Positions 20,261 through 55,325 of a stretch of 64,000 nt of DNA are shown piece after piece. A program made the translations under genes and the position numbers. Under the pieces are notes generated by a model. It searched no databases, was not told the DNA's origin, and was given only the letters and a program-made list of their open reading frames with translations. Source of the DNA: Mobula hypostoma (Eukaryota); assembly GCF_963921235.1 (NCBI RefSeq), contig NC_086097.1, positions 171,804,001 through 171,868,000 of the forward strand, in the 5' to 3' direction. Numbering within the stretch: the first letter of the stretch is position 1; every line of letters begins with the position of its first letter.

Positions 20261-22402
20261 GCGTTGGGTTGATGGTTGCATCATGGTCTGCCCCCGCAGT
20301 TCCGGAGAGTAAGAGCATAAAAGGCTGAAGAGAGTAGCAGACTCAACACAATACATCATTGGCACATCCCTATCCACCATCGAAAGAATCTACATGAGGT
20401 GCTGCCTCATCTATCATCAAAACCTCCCACCGTCCAGGTCCTGGCATCTTCCCCAGACACCATCAGGCAGGAAGTTCAGAAGCCTGAAGTTCCGCACAAG
20501 CAGGATCAAGAACAGTTACTTTCCTTCCACCATTCAATCCTTGAACCAGCCTGTACAACCCTAATCATAACCTCAGTCTGGCAACTCTGCATTTTGATCA
20601 CATTGCACTACAATATTTAGTTCTAAAGTGCTGGGGTTTTTTGCACTTTTTTTAATAAATTATGTTTAATTTATGTTTTTCTTGTGAATGCTGTGCCTCT
20701 AATACAATTTTCCTGTGATGTATTTGTTTATAATTTTATTGATACAAAGTTTTTATTACAACTGTGCATACATGCACTTGTGCAAATGGGAATAAACTCA
20801 ACTTTGATTTAGACATTAAATGTAAAGAAAGATGGGTATTGTCTGCATTTAATGTCTATATATTATGAGTAAAATAGATTTTTGAAATATTCTGTGCCAC
20901 TGTCAATAAAAGAAAATTTCCTGTATGCCTTCTGGTGGTTGTGTGAAAAAGCCTTCAAATTACTGAACCACTCTTCTCTAATTTTAATCTTATGACATCT
21001 GCTCATTCACCTTGCTGTAAGCATTAAAATCTCCTCCCATGTCTAGTTTACTTTATGATTAAGTCAATTATAATTTGCCTTTGGACTACACCAAGGGTTT
21101 TAAACTCTGATAATTATTTAGAAACCTGCAACTAAGGAGCAGGCCATTTGCTCCATCTGTATTATTGCTTCGTACTTACTTCATTCACCTGTTCCTCTCT
21201 CCATGGAAGCTGCCCAATCCAATGAGTATTTTATAGCACTCCCTGCTTTTGTTTCAGACTTTCAACATCAGTGGTATTTTGATTTTTGTCTACTTCATCC
21301 AACCCATTCAATGTCACTCTCTAAAGTGAGCATTTGATTTTGCGGAAGTTGTTTAATTAGCAGAGAGTGAATATTACTTCATGCTCCAGATTTAATTAGT
21401 TTGCTGTACTTTGTGGCATACATTATCTCTTAGGATAATTACAGTGCATTATTTTCCTCTCTAACTAGTGTGATGATGACCGATAAATATTTATATGGAA
21501 GTTTAGATTTAAAAATTATAAAACTGTAGATGGCAGATACTCACACTTTGCCGGGATGAAATTCTTAAAGAGCAGAGTGCACAGCCTAAGGGTGAAAGGG
21601 GAAAAGTTAAAAGGAGATATATGGGGCACGTTTCTTTACACAAACGGTATTAGTTGCCTGGAATTTTCTGCCAGGGGAGGTGATGGAAGCAAATATGATG
21701 GTGATATTAAAGAGGCATTCCGAGAGCCATGTGAATAGGCAGGGAGAGGAGCGATATGGATCACGTGCAGGCAGATAGAATTAGTTTCATCTGACATCCT
21801 GGTCAATGCAGACATTGTGAGCTGCAGGGCTTGTTCTTTTACCATACTGTGCTAAGTTCTATAAAACTACAATTACATACACTCTGATGTTCGCAATGCG
21901 TAAAACAGCAATGCAGAACCTGCTCCTTTATCTCTCATGCAGAGGAACGCTAGAAGCTGCAGAGAGTAATGGACTCAGCCCAATACAACATGGGAACATC
22001 TCTCCCCACCATCAAATGTATCGACATGAGGCACTACCTGAACAAAGCAACATTCATCCACAAAGATCCCCACCATCTGGTCCGTGCCATCTTCTCACAG
22101 CTAACACCAGGCAGGAGGTACAGAAGCCTGAAGTCCCACCGAACCAGGTTCACAAACAACTACTTCCCTTCAACCATGTGGTTCCTGAACAAACCTAATC
22201 ACTAACTCAGTACAGCAACAGTACGACCAATTTGACTGCTTTGCACTACGATAGTCTTTGTTTGTTTGTGTTCTAATCATGTTCATTCTTGTAAAAAAAT
22301 TCTGCATAATTTATTCCTTCCTTCTGAATAATGCCTGGGATGCAGCTACAAGTAAGTTTTCCATTGAACATACATATATGACAATAAACCCGACTGTGAA
22401 CT

Positions 22403-24046
22403 TTGACTTTTCTTCTCCTCCCGCCATCCAGGGACAGTGTGGACAGGGCAAATGAACTTAACCTGTTCCTTAACAGATTTGACAGTGTGGCCCCTGTCCA
22501 TCCCGCACATGAGCCATCTGTTGTTGGCCCCAAACCAACACATATTCCACTCTCCCCTCCTACCCCTCCTCACAGTCCCCCACCCTGCTCTCATGACTAT
22601 ACCCCTTCCCCACACGAAACGACCACGGTGGGCTTCACAGCTCTACAGGTGAGAAGACAGCTGAAACGTCTCAACCCAAGCAAGGCTGCAGGACCAGATG
22701 GTGTCAGTACCAGGGTATTCAAAGCCTGTGCCCCTCAGCTATGTGGAGTACTTCGCCATGTATTCAACCTGAGCCTGAGGCTCCAGAGGGTTCCCGTATT
22801 GTGGAAGACGTCCTGCCTCGTCCCTGTGCCGAAGACACCGCGCCCCAGCGGCCTCAATGACTACAGACCGGTGGCATTGACCTCCCACATCATGAAGACC
22901 CTGGAGAGACTTGTTCTGGAGCTACTCCGGCCTATGGTCAGGCCACACTTAGATCCCCTCCAGTTCGCCTACCAACCCCGACTAGGAGTTGAGGATGCCA
23001 TCGTCTTCCTGCTGAACCGTGTCTACGCCCACCTGGACAAGCCAGCGAGCACTGTGAGGGTCATGTTTTTTGACTTCTCCAGTGCGTTCAACACCATCCA
23101 CCCTGCTCTGCTGGGGGAGAAGCTGACAGCGATGCAGGTGGATGCTCCCCTGGTATCATGGATTCTTGATTACCTGTCTGGTAGACCACAGTACGTGTGC
23201 TTGCAACACTGTGTGTCCGACAGAGTGATCAGCAGCACTGGGGCTCCACAAGGAACTGTCTTGTCTCCCTTTCTCTTCACCATATACACCTCAGACTTCA
23301 ACTACTACACAGAGTCTTGTCATCTTCAGAAGTTTTTGGATGACTCTGCCATAGTGGGATGCATCAGCAAGGGAGATGAGGCTGAGTACAGGGCTACGGC
23401 AGGAAACTTTGTCACATGGTGTGAGCAGAATTATCTGCAGCTTAATATGAAAAAGACTAAGGAGCTGGTGGTAGACCTGAGGAGAGCTAAGGTACCGGTG
23501 ACCCCTGTTTCCATCCAGGGGGTCAGTGTGGACATGGTGGAGGATTACAAATACCTGGGGATACGAATTGACAATAAACTGGACAGGTCAAAGAACACTC
23601 AGGCTGTCTACAAGAAGGGTCAGAGCCGTCTCTATTTCCTGAGGAGACTGAGGTCCTTTAACATCTGCCGGACCATGCTGAGGATGTTCTACGAGTCTGT
23701 GGTGGCCAGTGCTATCATGTTTGCTGTTGTGTGCTGGGGCAGCAGGCTGAGGGTAGCAGACACGAACAGAATCAACAAACTCATTCGTAAAGCCAGTGAT
23801 GTTGTGGGGATGGAACTGGACTCTTTCACGGTGGTGTCTGAAAAGAGGATGCTGTCTTAGTTGCATGCCATCTTGGACAATGTCTCCCATCCACTACATA
23901 ATGTACTGGGTGGGCACAGGAGTACATTCAGCCAGAGACTCATTCCATCGAGATGCAGCACAGAGCATCATAGGAAGTCAATCCTGCCTGTGGCCATCAA
24001 ACTTTACAACTCCTCCCTTGGAGGGTCAGACAACCTGAGCCAATAG
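22403..24046 (+). pseudogene. Rex1 reverse transcriptase ORF, 5'-truncated, one premature stop
   Basis: ORFs 22403-23860 and 23861-24046 are in the same frame and contain RT domains 1-7. Confidence 0.85.
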
Positions 24047-26959: not shown

Positions 26960-28956
26960 TGTGGATGAATAGTCTTTTGTGCTCACAAAGACTTACTGTA
27001 CATTCCCAAACCAAAAGCTGTAGATGAACCAGGAGGTACATCGCCTGCTGAAGGCTAGATCTGTGGTATTCAAGTCTGGCAACCCAGGCCTGTATCAGAA
27101 AAACCAGGCTGATTTCTGGAGGGCTATTTCAAGTGCAAAGAGACAATTTCAAATGAGGTTGGAGGCGACATTGGAAGCACGGCAACTCTGGCAGGGTTTG
27201 TAGGTCATTACTTCCTGCAAAGCGAAACCCAGTAGCATGAATGGCAGCAATGCTTCACTCCCAGGTGAACTCAATGCTTCTATGCCCGCTTTGAAAGGGA
27301 GAATACAACTACCGCTGTGAAGATTCCTGTTGCACCTGATGACCCTGTGATCTCTGTCTCAGAGGCCGACGTTAGGTTGCCTTTAAAGAGAGTGAACCCT
27401 CACAAGGTGGAAGGTCCAGATGGAGAACCTAGTAAGGCTCTGAAAACCTGTGTCAATCAACTAGTGGGAGTATTTAAGGACATTTTCAACCTCTCACTGC
27501 TACAGGCGGAAGCTCCTACTTGCTTCAAAAGGCAACAATTATACCAGTGCCGAAGAAGAATAATGTGAGCTGCCTAAATAACTATTGCCTGGCAGCACTC
27601 ACATCAACAGTGATTAAATGCTTTGAGAAGTTGGTCATGACTAGACTGAACTCCTGCCTCAGCAAGGACCTGGACCCACTGCAATTTGCCTATGACCACA
27701 ATAGGTCAATGGCAGACGCAATTTCAATGGTTCTCCACACGGCTTTAAACCACCTGGACAACACAAACACCTATGTCAGGATGCTGCTCATCGACTATAG
27801 CTCGGCATTTAATACCATTGTTCCCACAATCCTGATGGAGAAGTTGCAGAACCTGGGCCTCTGTACCTCCCTCTGCAACTGGATCCTTGACTTCCTAATC
27901 GGAAGACTACAATCTGTGCGGATTGGTGATAACGTATCCTCCTCGCAGACGATCAATACTGGCGCATCTCAGGGATATGCACTTAGCCCACTGCTTTACT
28001 CTCTATATACACATGACTGCGTGGGTAGGCATAGATCAATCACCATCTATAAATTTGCTGATGATACAACTATTATTGGCAGAATCTCAGGTGGTGATAA
28101 GAGGGTATACAGGAATGAGATGTGCCAACTAGTGGAGTGGTGCTACAGCAACAACCTGGCACTCAACGTCAGTAAGACAAAAGAGCTGATTGTGGACTTC
28201 AGGAAGGGTAAGACAAAGGAACACATACCAATCCTCAGAGAGGGATCAGAAGTGGAGATGTTCCTGGGTGTCAAGATTTCTGAGGATCTAACCTGGTTCC
28301 AACATATAGATGTAGTTATAAAGAAAGCAAGACAGCGGCTATACTTCATTAGGAGTTTGAAGAGATTTTGTATGTCAACAAATACACTTAAAAACTTCTA
28401 TAGTTGTACCATGGAGAGCATTCTGACAGGCTGCATCACTGTCTGGTATGGAGGGGCTACTGCACAGGACCAGAAGAAGCTGCAGAGGGTTGTAAATTTA
28501 GTCAGCTCCATCTTGGGTACTAGCCTACAAAGTACTGAAGACATCTTCAGGGAGCGGTGTCTCAGAAAGGCAGCGTCCATTATTAAGGACCTCCAGCACC
28601 CAAGGTATGCCCTTTTCTCACTGCTATTATCAGGTCAGAGGTACAGAGGCTTGAAGGCACACACTCAGTGATTCAGGAACAGCTTCTTCCCCTCTTCCAT
28701 CCGATTCTTAAATGGACGTTGAACCCTTGGACACCACCTCCTGTTTCTTTATTAATATATAATATTTCTGAGTTTTGCACATTTTTGATCTATTCAATAT
28801 ACGTATGCTGTAATTGATTTACTTATTTTTTTATTATTATAATATTTGGTTTATTAATTTTTTTCCTCTCTTCTATATTATGTTTTGCATTGAACTGCTG
28901 CTGCTAATTTAACAAATTTCACCTCACATGCCAGTGATAATAAACCTGATTCTGAT
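26960..28956 (+). mobile_element. Rex-Babar/L2-type LINE, 5'-truncated, with RT
   Basis: 383-aa ORF 27520-28671 ([43 protein letters not shown]). AT-rich 3' UTR ending AATAAACCTGATTCTGAT. Confidence 0.88.
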
Positions 28957-32250: not shown

Positions 32251-32793
32251 TATGTATATGCTCTCTCATGAGACCCATTACCAACCTGATTTTCCCACTG
32301 GACCTGCATGCTAAAATCTCCCATGACATTGTTCTTGCAGTTTTGTGCATTGGAGCCTCCATACCAGGCTGTGATGTAACCAGTCAGAATGCTCTCCGTG
32401 CATTCATGTATAAAAGAAGCGTAAGAAACATTAAGCATGGCCTATCTCTCCAGATTTTCAAACATCCAACCTTGTTAAGTAATTGTTACTATGGAAAAGT
32501 GCAGAGAAGTTTTATGAGAATGATGCCAGAACTCGAAGCTCTGAGTTCTAGGGTGAGATTAGGCAGGCTAGGACATCATTCCTTGGAACATAGGAAACTC
32601 TGTGGTGACCTTATAGGGGTGTAAAACAAATTTGAGGGGCACAATAGAGTGAAGACACAGTCCTTTTCTCAAAGATAGCAAATCCAAAACTACAGTTCTA
32701 AATGCAATAGATTGGTCAGTTTGAGGTTATAAGTCTGGGAGAGGCAGATGAACCAAGAAATAATGGCATTGATAATAGTTTTATTATATCTAT

Positions 32794-33356
32794 GGGGTAT
32801 ATGGGGTGTCAGGGAGGGTTAGCACCTCTGGTGGGGGAACATGTCGCGTCCTTTTCAGGGCGGTTAGTCCCCCTTTAGTCCCCACCTGGCACTCAGATCT
32901 CACCTGTGGCTCCCCGTAGCTGTTTGCATGCGACAGCGGCCACACCCCGGGCAACGGCTTCGACAAGCCGGCTAAACCAGGTGAGGGTAGCCGACGGGTC
33001 TCAAACCCTCTGTGAGATAGGGAATTGTCTATCCCAACATGTGAAGACAGACTCCAGCGGATTGAGCGGACGAGACCAATGGAAGGTCCAACGGTCAAGA
33101 AGGCGGTCTCTGCAAGCGTTGTGGAACGTGTAGAGCAGGACAAGACACAGAAGACGTCCTGGTCATCCACTGCGCCTAGTCCTATCTCCAGCCGTCTAGA
33201 CTCTGTCTTGCCACTGGACCCAGATGGGAATTGGGAAGAGAGAGTGAGGCTGATGCTGCACAACTCTCCCTCACTTAAATCCAAATCACGCGCTAGTCTC
33301 GACACCATCATTATGGTGTTGAGGTCCTCATCGACGTCGACGATGGACGAACAACG
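32794..33356 (+). mobile_element. Short non-autonomous non-LTR retroelement headed by an HDV-like ribozyme (probably RTE-derived)
   Basis: Perfect 10-bp TSD TTATATCTAT at 32784-32793 and 33357-33366. CpG-rich compared with the flanks. No tRNA A/B boxes. Ends in stem-loops followed by GAACAAC. Confidence 0.85.
32803..32985 (+). ncRNA. HDV-like (double-pseudoknot) self-cleaving ribozyme
   Basis: P1 GGGGUGU 32803-09 / ACACCCC 32942-48. P2 CUCACCUG 32899-906 / CAGGUGAG 32978-85. P3 GGC 32908-10 / GCC 32939-41. L3 begins UCCCCG. P1.1 CC 32912-13 / GG 32949-50, then GCAA. P4 CGGCUU-CGAC-AAGCCG 32955-70. J4/2 GCUAA, with C32972 equivalent to catalytic C75. Confidence 0.85.
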
Positions 33357-34157
33357 TTATATCTATAGTGAATCTGGTCACTCCTTCATTGTTTGCTAAT
33401 TTGGGTGATTTTGATTTGGGCAGCCTGCAGGTAATGAACACTGTGCTGAACTGAAATATGCCTTTTGATTTTGAGTTTTTTATCCTGTGTTTCTGCTCTT
33501 TTTTTTACATTACCATTTGAGTAACTTGCATTTTTCTTGTTTTTTTGTTTCGTGGCTGTCTTGTGGGAAGATGAATCTCAGGGTTGTATACTGCATATAT
33601 ACTTTGATAATAAATGTACTTCCAATCTTTGAATCCTTGAATAGGGAAAGGCCTAGAGGGATAGGGGCCAAAAGTGAGCAAGTGGGACTAGCTTTGTGGA
33701 CACCATGGTCAGCGTGGATGAGTTATTCTGAAGGGCTGTTTTGTAGTGGATAACTCAATGGCTCTATGACTCTTATTGTACAAGGAGAGAACCAAGTAAG
33801 ATAATTGTACACCCTTTGGGCACATCTCCGAAACCCTCAAATTTCTAGAAGGAGCAGAGCATCGGCAAATGCCACCTCCAATTATCCTCTGCGTGTCTCA
33901 GAAGTATTCTCACTGTCACTGATACAGAAAGGTCCTGTTTCAATGTTGTATTACTTTGTGATTGTAATATTACATATTATAAAATAATATATTTTTAAAA
34001 TTTTTAATATCTATTTGAAGAGTCTTTAAATGGCCCTGACTTTCAGTTCAATGACCATGTCAATGATAGGACGTTCTGAAGCTTTTCCTCACTGTATAAT
34101 GGGTTTCCTACCAGATGTGGCAGGTTAGTTTGTCAGAGATTCAGCATGGAAACAGTG

Positions 34158-34335
34158 CAACACTCACAACACACTGGAGGAACTCAGCAGGTCGGGCAGC
34201 ATCTGTGGAAACGAACAGTCAACATTTCAGGACGGAACCTTTCATCAGGAGGTTCCGGCCCGAAACGTTGACTGTTCGTTTCCACGGATGCTGCCCGACC
34301 TGCTGAGTTCCTCCAGCATGTTGTGAGTGTTGTTT
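34158..34335. repeat. Penelope-derived palindrome (~83-bp arms) carrying a minimal hammerhead core
   Basis: 34158-34240 and 34250-34332 are reverse complements with about 6 mismatches. Minus strand 34216-34250 reads CUGAUGA-AAGG-UUCCGU-CCU-GAAA-UGUU-GACUG. Confidence 0.8.
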
Positions 34336-44343: not shown

Positions 44344-46401
44344 TACTAAGTGATAGTATCATTTTGATCTGCAAACTTCCTTGAGCTAAATAACTTAGCC
44401 AGTGTTATCTGGTTTGATGCAAGCTGATTAACACAACCCCGTTGTCTTACACTTAGTAGCCAGCCCCATCCTGTGGGCCAGCAGCCTGTTTGAAAAGCTG
44501 TCCTTTTAACTTGAGACAGGTTATTGCTAGCAATTTGCTTTAGGACCTGAAGACTGGTTCTTGTTTATGACAAGAAGCTGAGCAAGGAATGTTGGTTGGG
44601 AGTTTAACTTACTCAAAAACAACTCCTTAAATCCTGGAAGAGCCAGTTGCTGTGTTAGAAAGCTGAGTTTGGCAAAAAGCCCCCTGGTCGCTGGACAATG
44701 AATATCCATCACAGTGAAAGATTGCTAGAATCAGAATCAAATTGGAATCTGATTTATTATCACTGACTTAGGTTATCTGAAATATTTTGTGGAGACAGTA
44801 CGGTTAAACAACATCTATAAATTACAAAACAATGTATTAAGTATTGCAAAAGAAAAGGAATAATGAGGTAGTGCTCATGGGTTCATAGACAAATATAGAT
44901 CTTATAGTGGAAGGGATAAAGCTGTTTTTGAACCATTGTATGTAGGCATCAGCCTCCTGTACTTCCTCCTTGCTGGTAGGAATGAGAAGTGGGAATGTCC
45001 TGGGTGGTGAGGGTCTTTAATGATGGATGCTGCTTTCTTGAGACACCACTTCTTGAAGATATCATCGATGGTAAAACTAATCCGTATCTCTTGTTTGCTT
45101 TAATATCCAGAAATATATTGATCTCTGTTTTGAAAATAGTCAGTAGCAAAGCCTTCACAACTCCCTTGGCAACTCGTAAATTGGTATATTATTATCACAT
45201 GTTCTGAAGTGCAGTAAAAAATCTTTGTTTTGCATGCCATCCATACAGATCATTCCAAAGCATAAATACATTGTGGGGGTGCAAAGGGAAAAGCAATAAC
45301 AGTATGCAGAATATAGAGTTACAGTCACTGTTAGAGAGACAGTGCAGTGCTGGTAGACTATAAAGTATAAAAGCCACAATGAGGTCAATTGGGAGATCAA
45401 GAGCTCATCTTTATTGTAAAAGAGATTCATTCAATAGCCTTAAAACAGTGGGATGGAATCTGGCCATACGTGATTTCAGGCTTTTGTATGCCAGATGGGA
45501 GAGGGGAGAAGAGAGAATGTCCGGGTTGGGAGGTATTTCTGAATACGTTGGCTGCTTTTGCTGTGAAGGGAGTGGAGGATGAGGAATTCAAAATTTATGG
45601 ACAAAAACTGGGGATGTGTGCTGTTTATTCAAAGGTCTGAGACAGATGCAATGGACCAGATGGTCTGTGTGATGTAAGGTTTTATGGAGCAGAAATCTGA
45701 GGTCTGATATGCATTAAGTATGCTTCAAAGATTTCTTCTGAAACTTGGCTACTACTTAAACGTCGATCACATATTATGGCCGTGGGAGAATGCCAATTGT
45801 GAGACCGCCATCAGAGGTGTTCTGGAGAATATGGGCAAGTTCATCCTGAACTGAATGCACTGAAGGGTGCTATTATTTGTGGTACTTTGACTCGTAGAGT
45901 CATATGGCACGGAAATTGGCCTTACAGCCCAATAAGCCCAAGCCATCAAGGACTTGTTTGCACTAATCCCATATTAGCCCTATTTGATCCTCTGCACATT
46001 CCCATTGATCCTGCCCACACGAGGGGCAGCTCACAAAGGGAAAGACATCCCTGTCTTTGGACTATGGGAAGAAATCGTATCACCCACACGGTCACAGGCA
46101 GAACATGCAAACTCCACACTGACAGCCTCTCTATGTGGTATCAGAAAAGAAAACCAAAATGTGTTGTTTATAGTCTGAGAATAAAATCATCGTGCTTCTA
46201 TCTCATTATGAATTATCCCTTTCATCTCACTGCAAGATTTTGAAGCTTATTTAAAACCAGCAGAATTGCTATCAGAGAATGGTTTCAGCACAGGAAAGGC
46301 AATTTGATCTACTGATCCTGTACTAGTTCAATGTAAGCTTGACCAAAGCCCCAAACTCAGCAAACTCTTTCCTTTCTGATACACACCCAGTTTGTTATTG
46401 A

Positions 46402-46557
46402 GCAACGCACACAAAAAGCTGGAGGAACTCAGCAGGAAAAGAGTCTCGGTTCGAAACGTGGACTGTTTACTTTTTTCCGTAGATGCAGCCTGGCCTGCTG
46501 AGTTCCTCCAGCTTTTTGTGTGTGTTGCTTGGATTTCCAGCATCTGCAGGTTTTCTC
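46402..46557. repeat. Penelope-derived palindrome, internally deleted
   Basis: GCAACGCACACAAAAAGCTGGAGGAACTCAGCAGG is the inverted repeat of CCTGCTGAGTTCCTCCAGCTTTTTGTGTGTGTTGC; retains CGAAACGT of the hammerhead. Confidence 0.75.
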
Positions 46558-51100: not shown

Positions 51101-51920
51101 CTTGCTTTGGAATTTGCATACTGTTTGTTTATGTTTTTCTTTTGAATGCTGTGTCTCTAATGCTACATACCCATGATGTTGATGCAAGTAGGTTTTTCAT
51201 TGCACCTGTGCATATATGTACTTTGACATTCATATCTGCAAAAATACTTTGAACACTGTTCCAGGAGCTGTTGCATTACCCTGAAACAAAGGATCTTTTA
51301 TTGACAGCACTGTGGCAGTTGGAAGAGCCTCTATCTCAGAACTCCAGAGTCACGGGATAGATGCTATCTGTGTAGAGTTTGCATGCCTTGTTTTCGCAAG
51401 GTGCTCCAGTTTCCTCCGATATCCAAAAATATGCAGCATGGTAGATAAATTGACTGCTGTAAATTTCCCCTGGTGTGTAGGTGAGCAGAGGGATCCAGGG
51501 GGAGAGGGGGAGTTGCTGGGAATCTAGAGAGAATGAAATGGGTCGGGCTGGGGTCAGTGTAAATGGGTGATTGATGGTCAGAATGCACTCAGTGTCCAAA
51601 GGGCCTGTTCCCATTCTGTGTCTCCCTATGACTTGCTAACTGTTCGAACTTCCATAAAAAGAAGAAAATCTGCAAAAGCTGCTGATTGTGTGGGGCTAAT
51701 AGCACTGCTGAAATCTGATTTTACTTTTCTCTGTAGGAGTGGTTGCTTAGTTAGCAGAGAGCAGCGGGTGAGGGCTCTGCATTCAGTGATGCTGCACCTC
51801 CCTCTAGTGGTTGTTTGTAACACAGCAGCAAAGATACAGAAGCTGAGGTGCAGGGATCAGGAACAGAAAACTCAGCTCACCCGAGGTTTTTTCACAGAAC
51901 TTCAATTCATCAGACACATA

Positions 51921-53526
<1,606 letters not shown>

Positions 53527-53528
53527 TA

Positions 53529-55325
53529 TATAAAGGGTAAAAGAGAGTTGAAGGTAGATATAGGACTAATAGAAAATGTCGCTGGAGATATCGTAATGAG
53601 AGACACAGATGGCAGAGGAACTGAATGTGTATTTTGCATCAGTCTTCTCAGTGGAAGACATCTGCAGTATACCGGACATTCAAGAGTGTCAGGAAAGTGA
53701 AGTACTGTATGTGCAGTCAAAATTAGGACTGAGAAGGTGCTCAGGAAGCTTAATGTTCTGAGGATGGATGAATCTCCTGGACCTGATGGAATCAGGTTCT
53801 GAAAGAAGTAGCTGGAGAGATTACGGAGGTATTAACAATGATCTTTCAAGAATCAATAGGTTCTGGCATTGTACCAGATGACTAGAAAATTGCAAATGTT
53901 AATCCACTATTTAAGAAGGGCGGGAGGCAGCAAAAAGAAAACTATAGACCTGTTAGCCTGACGTCAGTGGTTGGGAAGTTGTTGGAATCGATTGTTAGGG
54001 ATGAGATTATGGAATACCTGGAAGCACATGACAAGATAGGTCAAAGCCAGCATGGTTTCCTGAAAGGAAAATCCTGCTTGACAAACCTACTGCAATTTTT
54101 TGAGGAAATTACAAGCAGGGAAGACAAAGATGCAGTAGATATGGTGTACAGAAGGTCTTTGACAAGGTGCCACACATGAGGCTGCTTAGCAAGATAAGGG
54201 CCTGTAGAATTACAGGGAAGTTACTAGCATGGGTGGAGCATTGGCTGATCGGCAGAAAACAGAGAGTGGGAATAAAGGGATCCTATTCTGGCTGGTTGCT
54301 GATTACCAGTAGAGTTCCACAGGGGTCAGTGTTGGGACTGCTGCTTTTTACGATGTATGTCAATGATTTGGACTATGGATTAATGGATTTGTGGCTATAT
54401 TTGCCAATGATACAAAGATAGGTGGAGGACTGCGTAGTGTTGAGGAAACAGAGAGCCTGCAGAGAGACTTAGTTTAAGGGAATGGGCAAAGAAATGGCAA
54501 ATGGAATACAATGTTGGAAAGTGTATCGTCATGCACTCTGGTGGAAGAAATAAACAAGCAGACTATTATTTAGATGGGGAAAGAATTCAAAATGCAGAGA
54601 TGCAAAGAGACTTGGGAGTCCTTATGCAGGATACCCTAAAGGTTAACCTCCAGGTTGAGTCGGTGGTGAAGAAGGCAAATTAAATTTTGGCATTCATTTC
54701 CAGAGGTATAGAATATAAGAGCAGGGGTGTGATGTTGAGGCCTAAAAGGCACTAGTGAGACCACACTTGGGGTATTGTGTGCAGTTTTGTGTTCCTTATT
54801 TTAGAAAGGATATATTGACATTGGAGAGGGTTCAGAGAAGATTCATGAGAATGATTCCAGGAATGAAAAGTTATCGTGTGAGGAACATCTGACAGCTCTT
54901 GGGCTGTATTCCCTGGAGTTCAGGAGAATGAGGGGGAATCTCATAGAAACATTCTGAATGTTAAAAGGCCTGAACAGATTAGTTATGGCAAAGTAATTTC
55001 CCATGGTAGGGGATTCTAGGACAAGAGAACATGACTTCAGGATTGAAGGACATCCATTTAGAACAGAGATGCAGAGAAATGATTTTAGTCAGAAGGTGGT
55101 AGATCTATGGAATTTGTTGCCACAAGTGGCTGTGGAAGCCAAGTCATTGGGTGCATTTAAGACAGAGATTGATAGGTTCTTGATTAGCCACAGCATCAAA
55201 GGGTATGGGGAGAAGGCAGGGGAGTGGGGATAACTAGAAGAATTGGATCAGCCCATGATTGAATGGCAGAACATACTCGATGGGCCAAATGGCCTATTTC
55301 TGCTCCTATATCTTACAGTCTTATG
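53529..55325 (+). mobile_element. CR1 LINE RT and 3' end
   Basis: NYRPVSLTSVVGKLLESI, QHGFLKGKSCLTNLLQFF and VPQGSVLG, plus the CR1 tail. Confidence 0.92.

Follow-up and report, generated by a model that had tools for sequence, protein, structure and literature searches.

The window analysed here, a 64,000-nt stretch of Mobula hypostoma DNA, carries at 32794–33356 (+) a 563-nt mini-element bracketed by identical 10-mers (32784–32793 and 33357–33366). Its CpG observed/expected ratio is 0.70, against 0.27 for the whole window, a regular-expression search finds neither a Pol III A box nor a B box within it, and its two longest stop-to-stop frames (188 and 127 amino acids) have no Pfam match reaching cut-off. 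The first-pass annotation of this DNA had described a CpG-rich insertion with a 10-bp target-site duplication (TSD), no Pol III boxes and no credible open reading frame (ORF), and is borne out on all of these points. With no A or B box, a SINE in the Pol III sense is ruled out. No second copy of the element lies within the 64-kb window. Its parts are as follows.

32784–32793 (+): left target-site duplication, 10 bp
32794–33356 (+): whole mini-element, a bipartite non-autonomous RTE of the young subfamily (A at nt 6, ATTA junction variant)
32794–33314 (+): 5′ module, nt 1–521 of the autonomous RTE; predicted ribozyme and proximal 5′UTR, 88–94% identity to LINE copies
32794–32800 (+): outer P1, 5′ strand; proposed G1 is G32794, putative cut site at the 5′ junction; A32799–C32943 mismatch in this copy
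32803–32813 (+): inner duplicate of the P1 strand, G1 of the first-pass annotation; 32804–32813 pairs with 32885–32894, closing the J1/2 domain
32885–32894 (+): J1/2 closing helix, 3′ strand, 10 bp
32899–32910 (+): P2 5′ strand (32899–32907) and P3 5′ strand (32908–32910)
32911–32938 (+): L3, U-C-C-C-C-G-U followed by an inserted hairpin (32919–32937); P1.1 from C32912 and C32913
32939–32950 (+): P3 3′ strand (32939–32941), P1 3′ strand (32942–32948) and G-G of P1.1 (32949–32950)
32955–32970 (+): P4 hairpin, 6 bp; 3 pairs changed on both sides across families
32971–32985 (+): J4/2 with putative catalytic C32972; P2 3′ strand (32976–32985) with C32977 bulged
33298–33323 (+): junction hairpin; 33298–33308 (end of the 5′ module) pairs with 33313–33323 (start of the 3′ part)
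33313–33355 (+): 3′ part, the last ~43 nt of the RTE; terminal stem-loop (33324–33348) and short AAC repeats
33357–33366 (+): right target-site duplication, 10 bp

The family and its partner LINE

A first-look search of the genome returned 4538 candidates, and the 40 that were scored are full length with 95–97% identity. Exact matches number 797 for a 37-nt core and 929 for the deletion junction, with 0 for the reversed controls, in agreement with the high copy number that had been anticipated; we put the family at about 1000 or more copies of this mini-element (hereafter mini). Because the top-match set (L001–L030) is biased towards full-length, window-like copies, counts were taken from position-ordered pattern samples, which require an exact core. 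The loci read per pattern search were 30 of 797, 30 of 232, 20 of 76, 30 of 224, 30 of 234 and 30 of 30. Two duplicates (L046 and L051) and a LINE (L048) were left out of the 27-copy count of 5′ starts, and L035, L037, L039, L043 and L044 were additionally left out of the 22-mini TSD count and the comparison of module variants; duplicate chimeras (see below) were removed before variants and subfamilies were counted among them. TSDs flank 20 of 30 top-match minis and 15 of 22 position-ordered ones; the controls gave 11 of 300 for the former and, with mismatched flank pairs, 6 of 300 for the latter. These position-ordered TSDs and the fixed junction show that the element was amplified as a unit. 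Minis diverge by 2.2–3.0% from their own majority, the subfamily with A at nt 6 (A6), to which this copy belongs, being less diverged (1.7% versus 2.4%). One locus (L035:774–1910) holds a head-to-tail pair of minis, the first of which ends at nt 522, beside the duplex described below.

One of the 30 position-ordered core matches (L048) continues into an RTE-type ORF, and both ends of the mini are present 4044–4099 nt apart in 11 of the 20 long loci read. Nucleotides 1–521 and 520–562 of the mini match the two ends of ~4.09-kb LINE copies, one of which (L095) has a 1109-codon APE+RT frame with PF03372 and PF00078 above cut-off. The LINE ends in short AAC/CAC tandem repeats, and motifs in its 3′ 200 nt recur in the same order in MAR4_MD, RTE-1_PSi and RTE-3_AMi, with motifs also found in WALLSI (supplement of PMC5786205). 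Judged by its APE+RT ORF, tandem-repeat end and UTR motifs, the partner is a 4.1-kb RTE-clade LINE of the same genome, and the alignments show the mini to be made up of the first 521 nt and the last ~43 nt of this LINE. The sharing of both termini with an autonomous RTE upholds the earlier description of the element as an internally deleted RTE derivative.

The LINE has some features of its own. A ~250-nt structured leader lies between an (ATC)n linker and the ORF (L095:4440–4680 (−), L229, L111, L112, L115 and L118); 26 of its 64 predicted pairs show two-sided change, and it is absent from the mini. No Met occurs among the first ~140 codons of the L095 ORF, and the leader is possibly an internal translation start. 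The linker, just 3′ of the duplex strand, varies from ~2 to 8 units (L091–L110), and in L096 and L102 it starts with mini-type letters, as if LINE bodies had also been joined to mini-type modules.

Two older sister families, B and C, were found through 232 pattern matches (L129–L158 read); like the family of this element (family A), they show an L3 hairpin and a doubled P1 strand, and they also have minis of their own. In a subgroup of family C (L138, L139, L143, L144, L149 and L155), the first ~380 nt are joined to a different RTE-like 3′ half. Part of the element occurs in 20 of 24 sequencing-run rows, with 7 organisms at a share of at least 0.43 (contigs); near-identical words of it occur in runs from seven organisms, and run X20 holds only a diverged relative. 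Two rows tentatively labelled RNA, each with a small share, did not count towards the evidence. A metagenome scan gave 18 loci, of which 4 match the 5′UTR and 2 the ribozyme region, L112 being without a 5′ end.

The ribozyme fold and its predicted cleavage site

The first ~190 nt of the element can be drawn as P1, P2, P3, P1.1 and P4 in nested double-pseudoknot order, with the core signatures U32911 CC..G32916, GGGCAAC (32949–32955) and G32971-C32972-U-A-A; all helices and signatures lie at the positions where they had first been annotated. The conserved HDV core positions (U20, C21, C22, G25, the catalytic C75 and A78) are all matched here, and the putative catalytic C is a C in 78 of 79 letters from sets unselected on that position. 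A custom HDV-like descriptor, written after the element was seen, permitting a long L3 and accepting either P1 strand, gave a single match when both strands of the 64-kb window were scanned and 0 in 1000 dinucleotide shuffles of the element. Rfam returned no ribozyme match on the element even at E 10, and none that was significant on the 5′ kilobase of the LINE, probably because of the extra 19-nt hairpin in L3 and the ~100-nt J1/2. HDV-like ribozymes usually have an L3 of ~7–8 nt. Here L3 measures 28 nt, including the conserved hairpin at 32919–32937, so that we term the ribozyme a variant.

Covariation was scored over 10 related rows, where 7 of 42 pairs show two-sided change, mostly in P4, a score reached by 0 of 500 shuffles. 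Compensatory pairs number three in P4, one in P2 and one in outer P1 (in the metagenome relative L119), with none in P3, P1.1 or the L3 hairpin, which itself shows no two-sided change. On this modelling, the 5′ end is an HDV-like ribozyme of variant form (long L3, doubled P1 strand) with predicted self-cleavage. A ribozyme with an L3 hairpin and a duplicated cut-site strand also offers a ready test of a build that Rfam misses.

The 5′ strand of P1 occurs twice, 9 nt apart (32794–32800 and 32803–32809), and cleavage had been placed at U32802/G32803, with 5′ ends expected to cluster at G32803. Instead, of 27 position-ordered copies 20 have their 5′ start at nt 1–3 and just 2 at nt 9–10; starts at nt 1–3 are also seen in 13 of 20 LINE loci and, in the sister families, in 12 of 14 copies of C and 6 of 16 of B. 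The minimum free energy structure engages the inner strand elsewhere, pairing 32804–32813 with 32885–32894 in a 10-bp helix that families A and C retain and that is for the most part preserved in B. In L119, P1 position 6 and its partner have both changed, and the outer strand alone pairs. Three observations make G32794, the first base of the element, the most likely G1 in place of G32803: the starts of the copies, the engagement of the inner strand in the J1/2 helix and the covariation of L119 with the outer strand. Pairing across the 10 rows amounts to 96.6% for outer P1, which has one compensatory pair, and to 85.7% for inner P1, which lacks such pairs, and sums of helix energies without pseudoknot terms put the outer model ahead by 8.5 kcal/mol for this copy and 11.8 kcal/mol for L002.

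That G1 is nonetheless G32803, with the 9 extra nucleotides restored at integration or retained from uncleaved RNA, strikes us as very improbable. In all three families (A, B and C) the seven base pairs of inner P1 are perfect (L119 is the only discriminating sequence), the inner drawing is formally possible by the descriptor, and L053 carries the 9-nt unit three times (1335–1365), so the unit can be duplicated at integration. The young subfamily of this copy, moreover, has an A–C mismatch in outer P1 (21 of 29 top matches, 3 of 20 position-ordered ones), which makes the inner strand the stronger P1 by 3.5 kcal/mol in this copy alone. However, the 9 nt are fixed in the LINE, the mini, the chimeras and two sister families, the inner strand is part of a conserved helix, few position-ordered copies begin beyond these nucleotides, and L119 pairs the outer strand and not the inner one.

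A second alternative grants the fold but takes the ribozyme to be inactive in this subfamily, its RNA coming from an internal Pol II promoter in the 5′ module or from read-through with 5′ ends otherwise set. For some ribozymes, those of R2 among them, failure to cleave in vitro has been linked with P1 mismatches (PMC3774820), an L3 insert of 19 nt is unusual, and Pol II transcription is assumed for bipartite LINEs in PMC5786205. Yet about a quarter of R2 ribozymes have 1–2 mismatches at the top of P1 (PMC3774820), the ribozyme core of this copy (32899–32985) is identical to its subfamily majority, and the A6 subfamily, for all its mismatch, is the less diverged of the two and spread with 5′ ends that are precise. 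We hold inactivity to be improbable and keep to a ribozyme predicted to cut at G32794.

The junction duplex and the SINE chimeras

The deletion junction of the mini coincides with an 11-bp hairpin (33298–33323); in the LINE, its two strands are separated by ~3.5 kb. Over the whole UTR, the family A duplex is not significant, being matched or beaten by 17, 3 and 36 of 50 shuffles; in an interval chosen after the fact, fewer than 5% of shuffles reach it in only 5 of 10 copies. A family C LINE (L229), ~71% identical in its 5′ part, has at the same position, nt 503–518, 16 nt of unrelated sequence that pair with the 3′ end of this LINE itself, a duplex reached by 1 of 50 shuffles over the whole UTR and by 0 of 500 in the interval predicted from family A. 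Pairings across the two families are no better than shuffles (449 and 185 of 500), and L118 has no duplex (269 of 500 shuffles). By eye, RTE-3_AMi, RTE-1_PSi and MAR4_MD have 8–10 complementary nucleotides at the same place, with compensating letters, in the alignments supplied with PMC5786205. All 30 exact family C tails were read, giving 26 of LINE type and four minis with four different junctions beside the duplex, and family A contributed one further independent mini (L279). The duplex is absent from several minis of families B and C, and would thus be dispensable once the ends are joined. Taken together, these observations suggest that the duplex probably guides a recurrent jump site of the reverse transcriptase (RT).

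Two of the 30 core matches consist of the 5′ module followed by a tRNA-like head, a body and the tail of this RTE. An exact chimera-junction pattern matched 76 loci with 21 junction types and 0–6 added nucleotides, mostly A. With a query made of the SINE alone, the module lies upstream in the best 20 of 20 matches read (self included). The 30 position-ordered SINE heads divide into 27 with other tails, none of which carries the module (0 of 27), and three with this tail, all of which do (3 of 3); 30 position-ordered tails comprise 13 LINE ends, 16 SINEs, again all with the module (16 of 16), and one mini. The tail, head and SINE-only samples partly overlap. The label tRNA-headed refers to A- and B-box-like motifs seen by eye, and ARAGORN found no tRNA in six SINE loci. 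One tRNA-like head and body is common to SINEs with at least four different 3′ tails (L199–L228). Insertion of a SINE into an existing mini is ruled out for the chimeras, as no second tail follows and the TSDs, which span the whole composite in 7 of 16, flank it as a unit.

The 51 distinct chimeras include two SINE subfamilies that are told apart by 12 near-fixed sites over 181 nt; the 516-nt module has no such site. Module variants seen in the chimeras are also present in the pool of LINE copies, and we found no non-CpG variant peculiar to the chimeras. A varied SINE part set against a uniform module argues that the two are not co-inherited. Junctions are of 23 types in 26 copies of subfamily S1, and one type accounts for 11 of 25 copies of S2; the mini has two junction variants (48 of 60 loci, 929 exact matches).

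A tentative reading of these data, to which we give slightly less than even odds, is that the RTE lineage uses a two-part RNA, in which a ~520-nt ribozyme-headed module pairs with the 3′ tail, is supplied in trans and is perhaps needed to finish integration. RT would copy the tail-bearing RNA and then jump onto the module just 3′ of the duplex, and the mini would be the frozen, cis form of the same jump. Alternatively, the chimeras could be maintained in cis, the composite RNA being cut at the 5′ end of the tRNA-like head while its halves stay duplexed and are re-joined by RT in each generation. RNase P, for example, cuts tRNA-like folds. Re-joining in cis would account for the variety of junctions as well as for the lack of free SINEs bearing this tail, and SINE subfamily is to some extent linked with module positions 14 and 496 (p 0.004–0.02, uncorrected). 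We nevertheless think it rather unlikely, because the variants at positions 14 and 496 are common to the LINE pool, the chimeras have no non-CpG variant of their own, and the near-fixed differences between SINE subfamilies stop short of the module.

The junctions might also have slipped within an A/CAT-rich tract during the spread of a few composite masters, the duplex being incidental. The LINE linker at the same place is indeed a variable-length (ATC)n tract, divergence of at least 5% blurs junctions, and a single junction type recurs in 11 of 25 copies of S2. We find this improbable: the mini, with the same flanking letters, keeps its two junction variants against 21 types in 76 chimeras and 23 in 26 S1 copies, and uniform versus varied junctions separate single from recurring jumps by the criterion of PMC3414825, on which the variety seen here is a sign of recurring jumps.

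If the duplex does mark a recurrent RT jump site, as we favour, it would explain both the repeated minis of RTEs and the piece of 5′UTR found on RTE-mobilised SINEs. The same reading bears on gene-insertion tools built on RTE-1_MD, whose templates carry both UTRs (PMC13708176).

Proposed mobilisation and relation to known elements

We interpret the element as a young copy of a bipartite, ORF-less RTE derivative that is released by its ribozyme at G32794 and mobilised in trans by target-primed reverse transcription (TPRT), a reading to which we assign a probability of roughly 0.8. Copies in transcribed regions would be cut from read-through RNA by the ribozyme at their first G (32794), and the APE-RT protein of the LINE would copy the mini RNA by TPRT, starting at the 3′ stem-loop and the AAC repeats. 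With less confidence, we propose that the 5′ module may pair through its end with the 3′ end of the full LINE RNA and hold the two ends together, and that RT would then tend to jump just 3′ of the duplex, giving rise to repeated minis and attaching the module to tail-bearing RNAs of tRNA-headed SINEs. The R2 protein binds both UTRs of its element (PMC6765202), and by analogy the RTE module may have an equivalent role. The first-pass annotation was thus right in taking the element as real and as an RTE derivative, and its cut site moves by 9 nt to the first base.

Bipartite, ORF-absent non-autonomous RTEs have been described as MAR4_MD, RTESINE1/2, WALLSI3 and RTE-N2_Lch (PMC5786205). The present element is of the MAR4_MD type, a 5′UTR joined to a short RTE 3′ end, and MAR4_MD itself measures ~552 nt. 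The same paper suggests ribozymes at the 5′ ends of bipartite RTEs and states that such derivatives arise in few clades 'for unknown reasons'; its main text does not mention pairing between the two parts. To that account the present analysis adds the ribozyme fold, with a putative cut site at nt 1, as well as the partner LINE and the junction duplex.

A close functional parallel is with the SIDEs of R2 (R2Dwi_SIDE, 529 bp), which are likewise non-coding and combine a 5′ HDV-like ribozyme with the 3′ end of their partner; they are released from a co-transcript, with cleavage shown in vitro (PMC3414825, PMC3774820). R2, however, is an rDNA-specific RLE element with few copies, whereas the present element is of the dispersed APE type of RTE, with TSDs of ~10 bp and thousands of candidates. 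The authors of PMC3414825 favoured DNA recombination for the origin of SIDEs; our data point to RT jumps for the minis described here. Because of these SIDE parallels and the motifs common to Repbase RTEs, the architecture of the element is already known, and we class it as a bipartite non-autonomous RTE that, by analogy, would work like an R2 SIDE.

HDV-like ribozymes occur in RTE, R4, L1Tc and baggins (cited in PMC3774820, PMC5786205 and PMC6765202), and the RTE ribozyme is described by citing papers as cleaving at the exact 5′ junction of its element (PMC3774820). The fold proposed here has the same nested double pseudoknot and, as far as these are described in the citing papers, differs from them in its 19-nt L3 hairpin, its doubled P1 5′ strand and the lack of an Rfam match. 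The chimeras resemble those of U6 and LINEs, in which RT recurrently switches between two RNAs and leaves varied junctions inside one TSD, switches that also occur with RTE-like LINEs and SINEs (PMC4476161). In the U6/LINE case, a host snRNA is added at the 5′ side from time to time; the acceptor in our chimeras is the 5′ module of the LINE at a fixed internal point, and the module is present in every sampled SINE copy with this tail.

The proposal of an undescribed ribozyme-SINE family is not supported, the kind being known from bipartite RTEs and SIDEs and the Pol III boxes missing. In the literature searched, which included neither Repbase nor patents nor subscription journals, we found no account of the family or of its L3 hairpin, duplex and chimeras; the family may have been named elsewhere. 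As a bipartite RTE derivative the element merely adds an example, and it is the build of its ribozyme and, above all, the duplex and the detachable-module pattern that go further.

Several other frames in the window resemble, by eye, parts of mobile elements: an RTE-type endonuclease (552–1088 (−)), two RT fragments (22400–23860 (+) and 27478–28671 (+)) and a Tc1-like transposase (52480–52929 (−)), the last with an inverted pair at 51918–53529. Two long near-perfect palindromes, at 34158–34332 and 46401–46529, are probably MITE-like.
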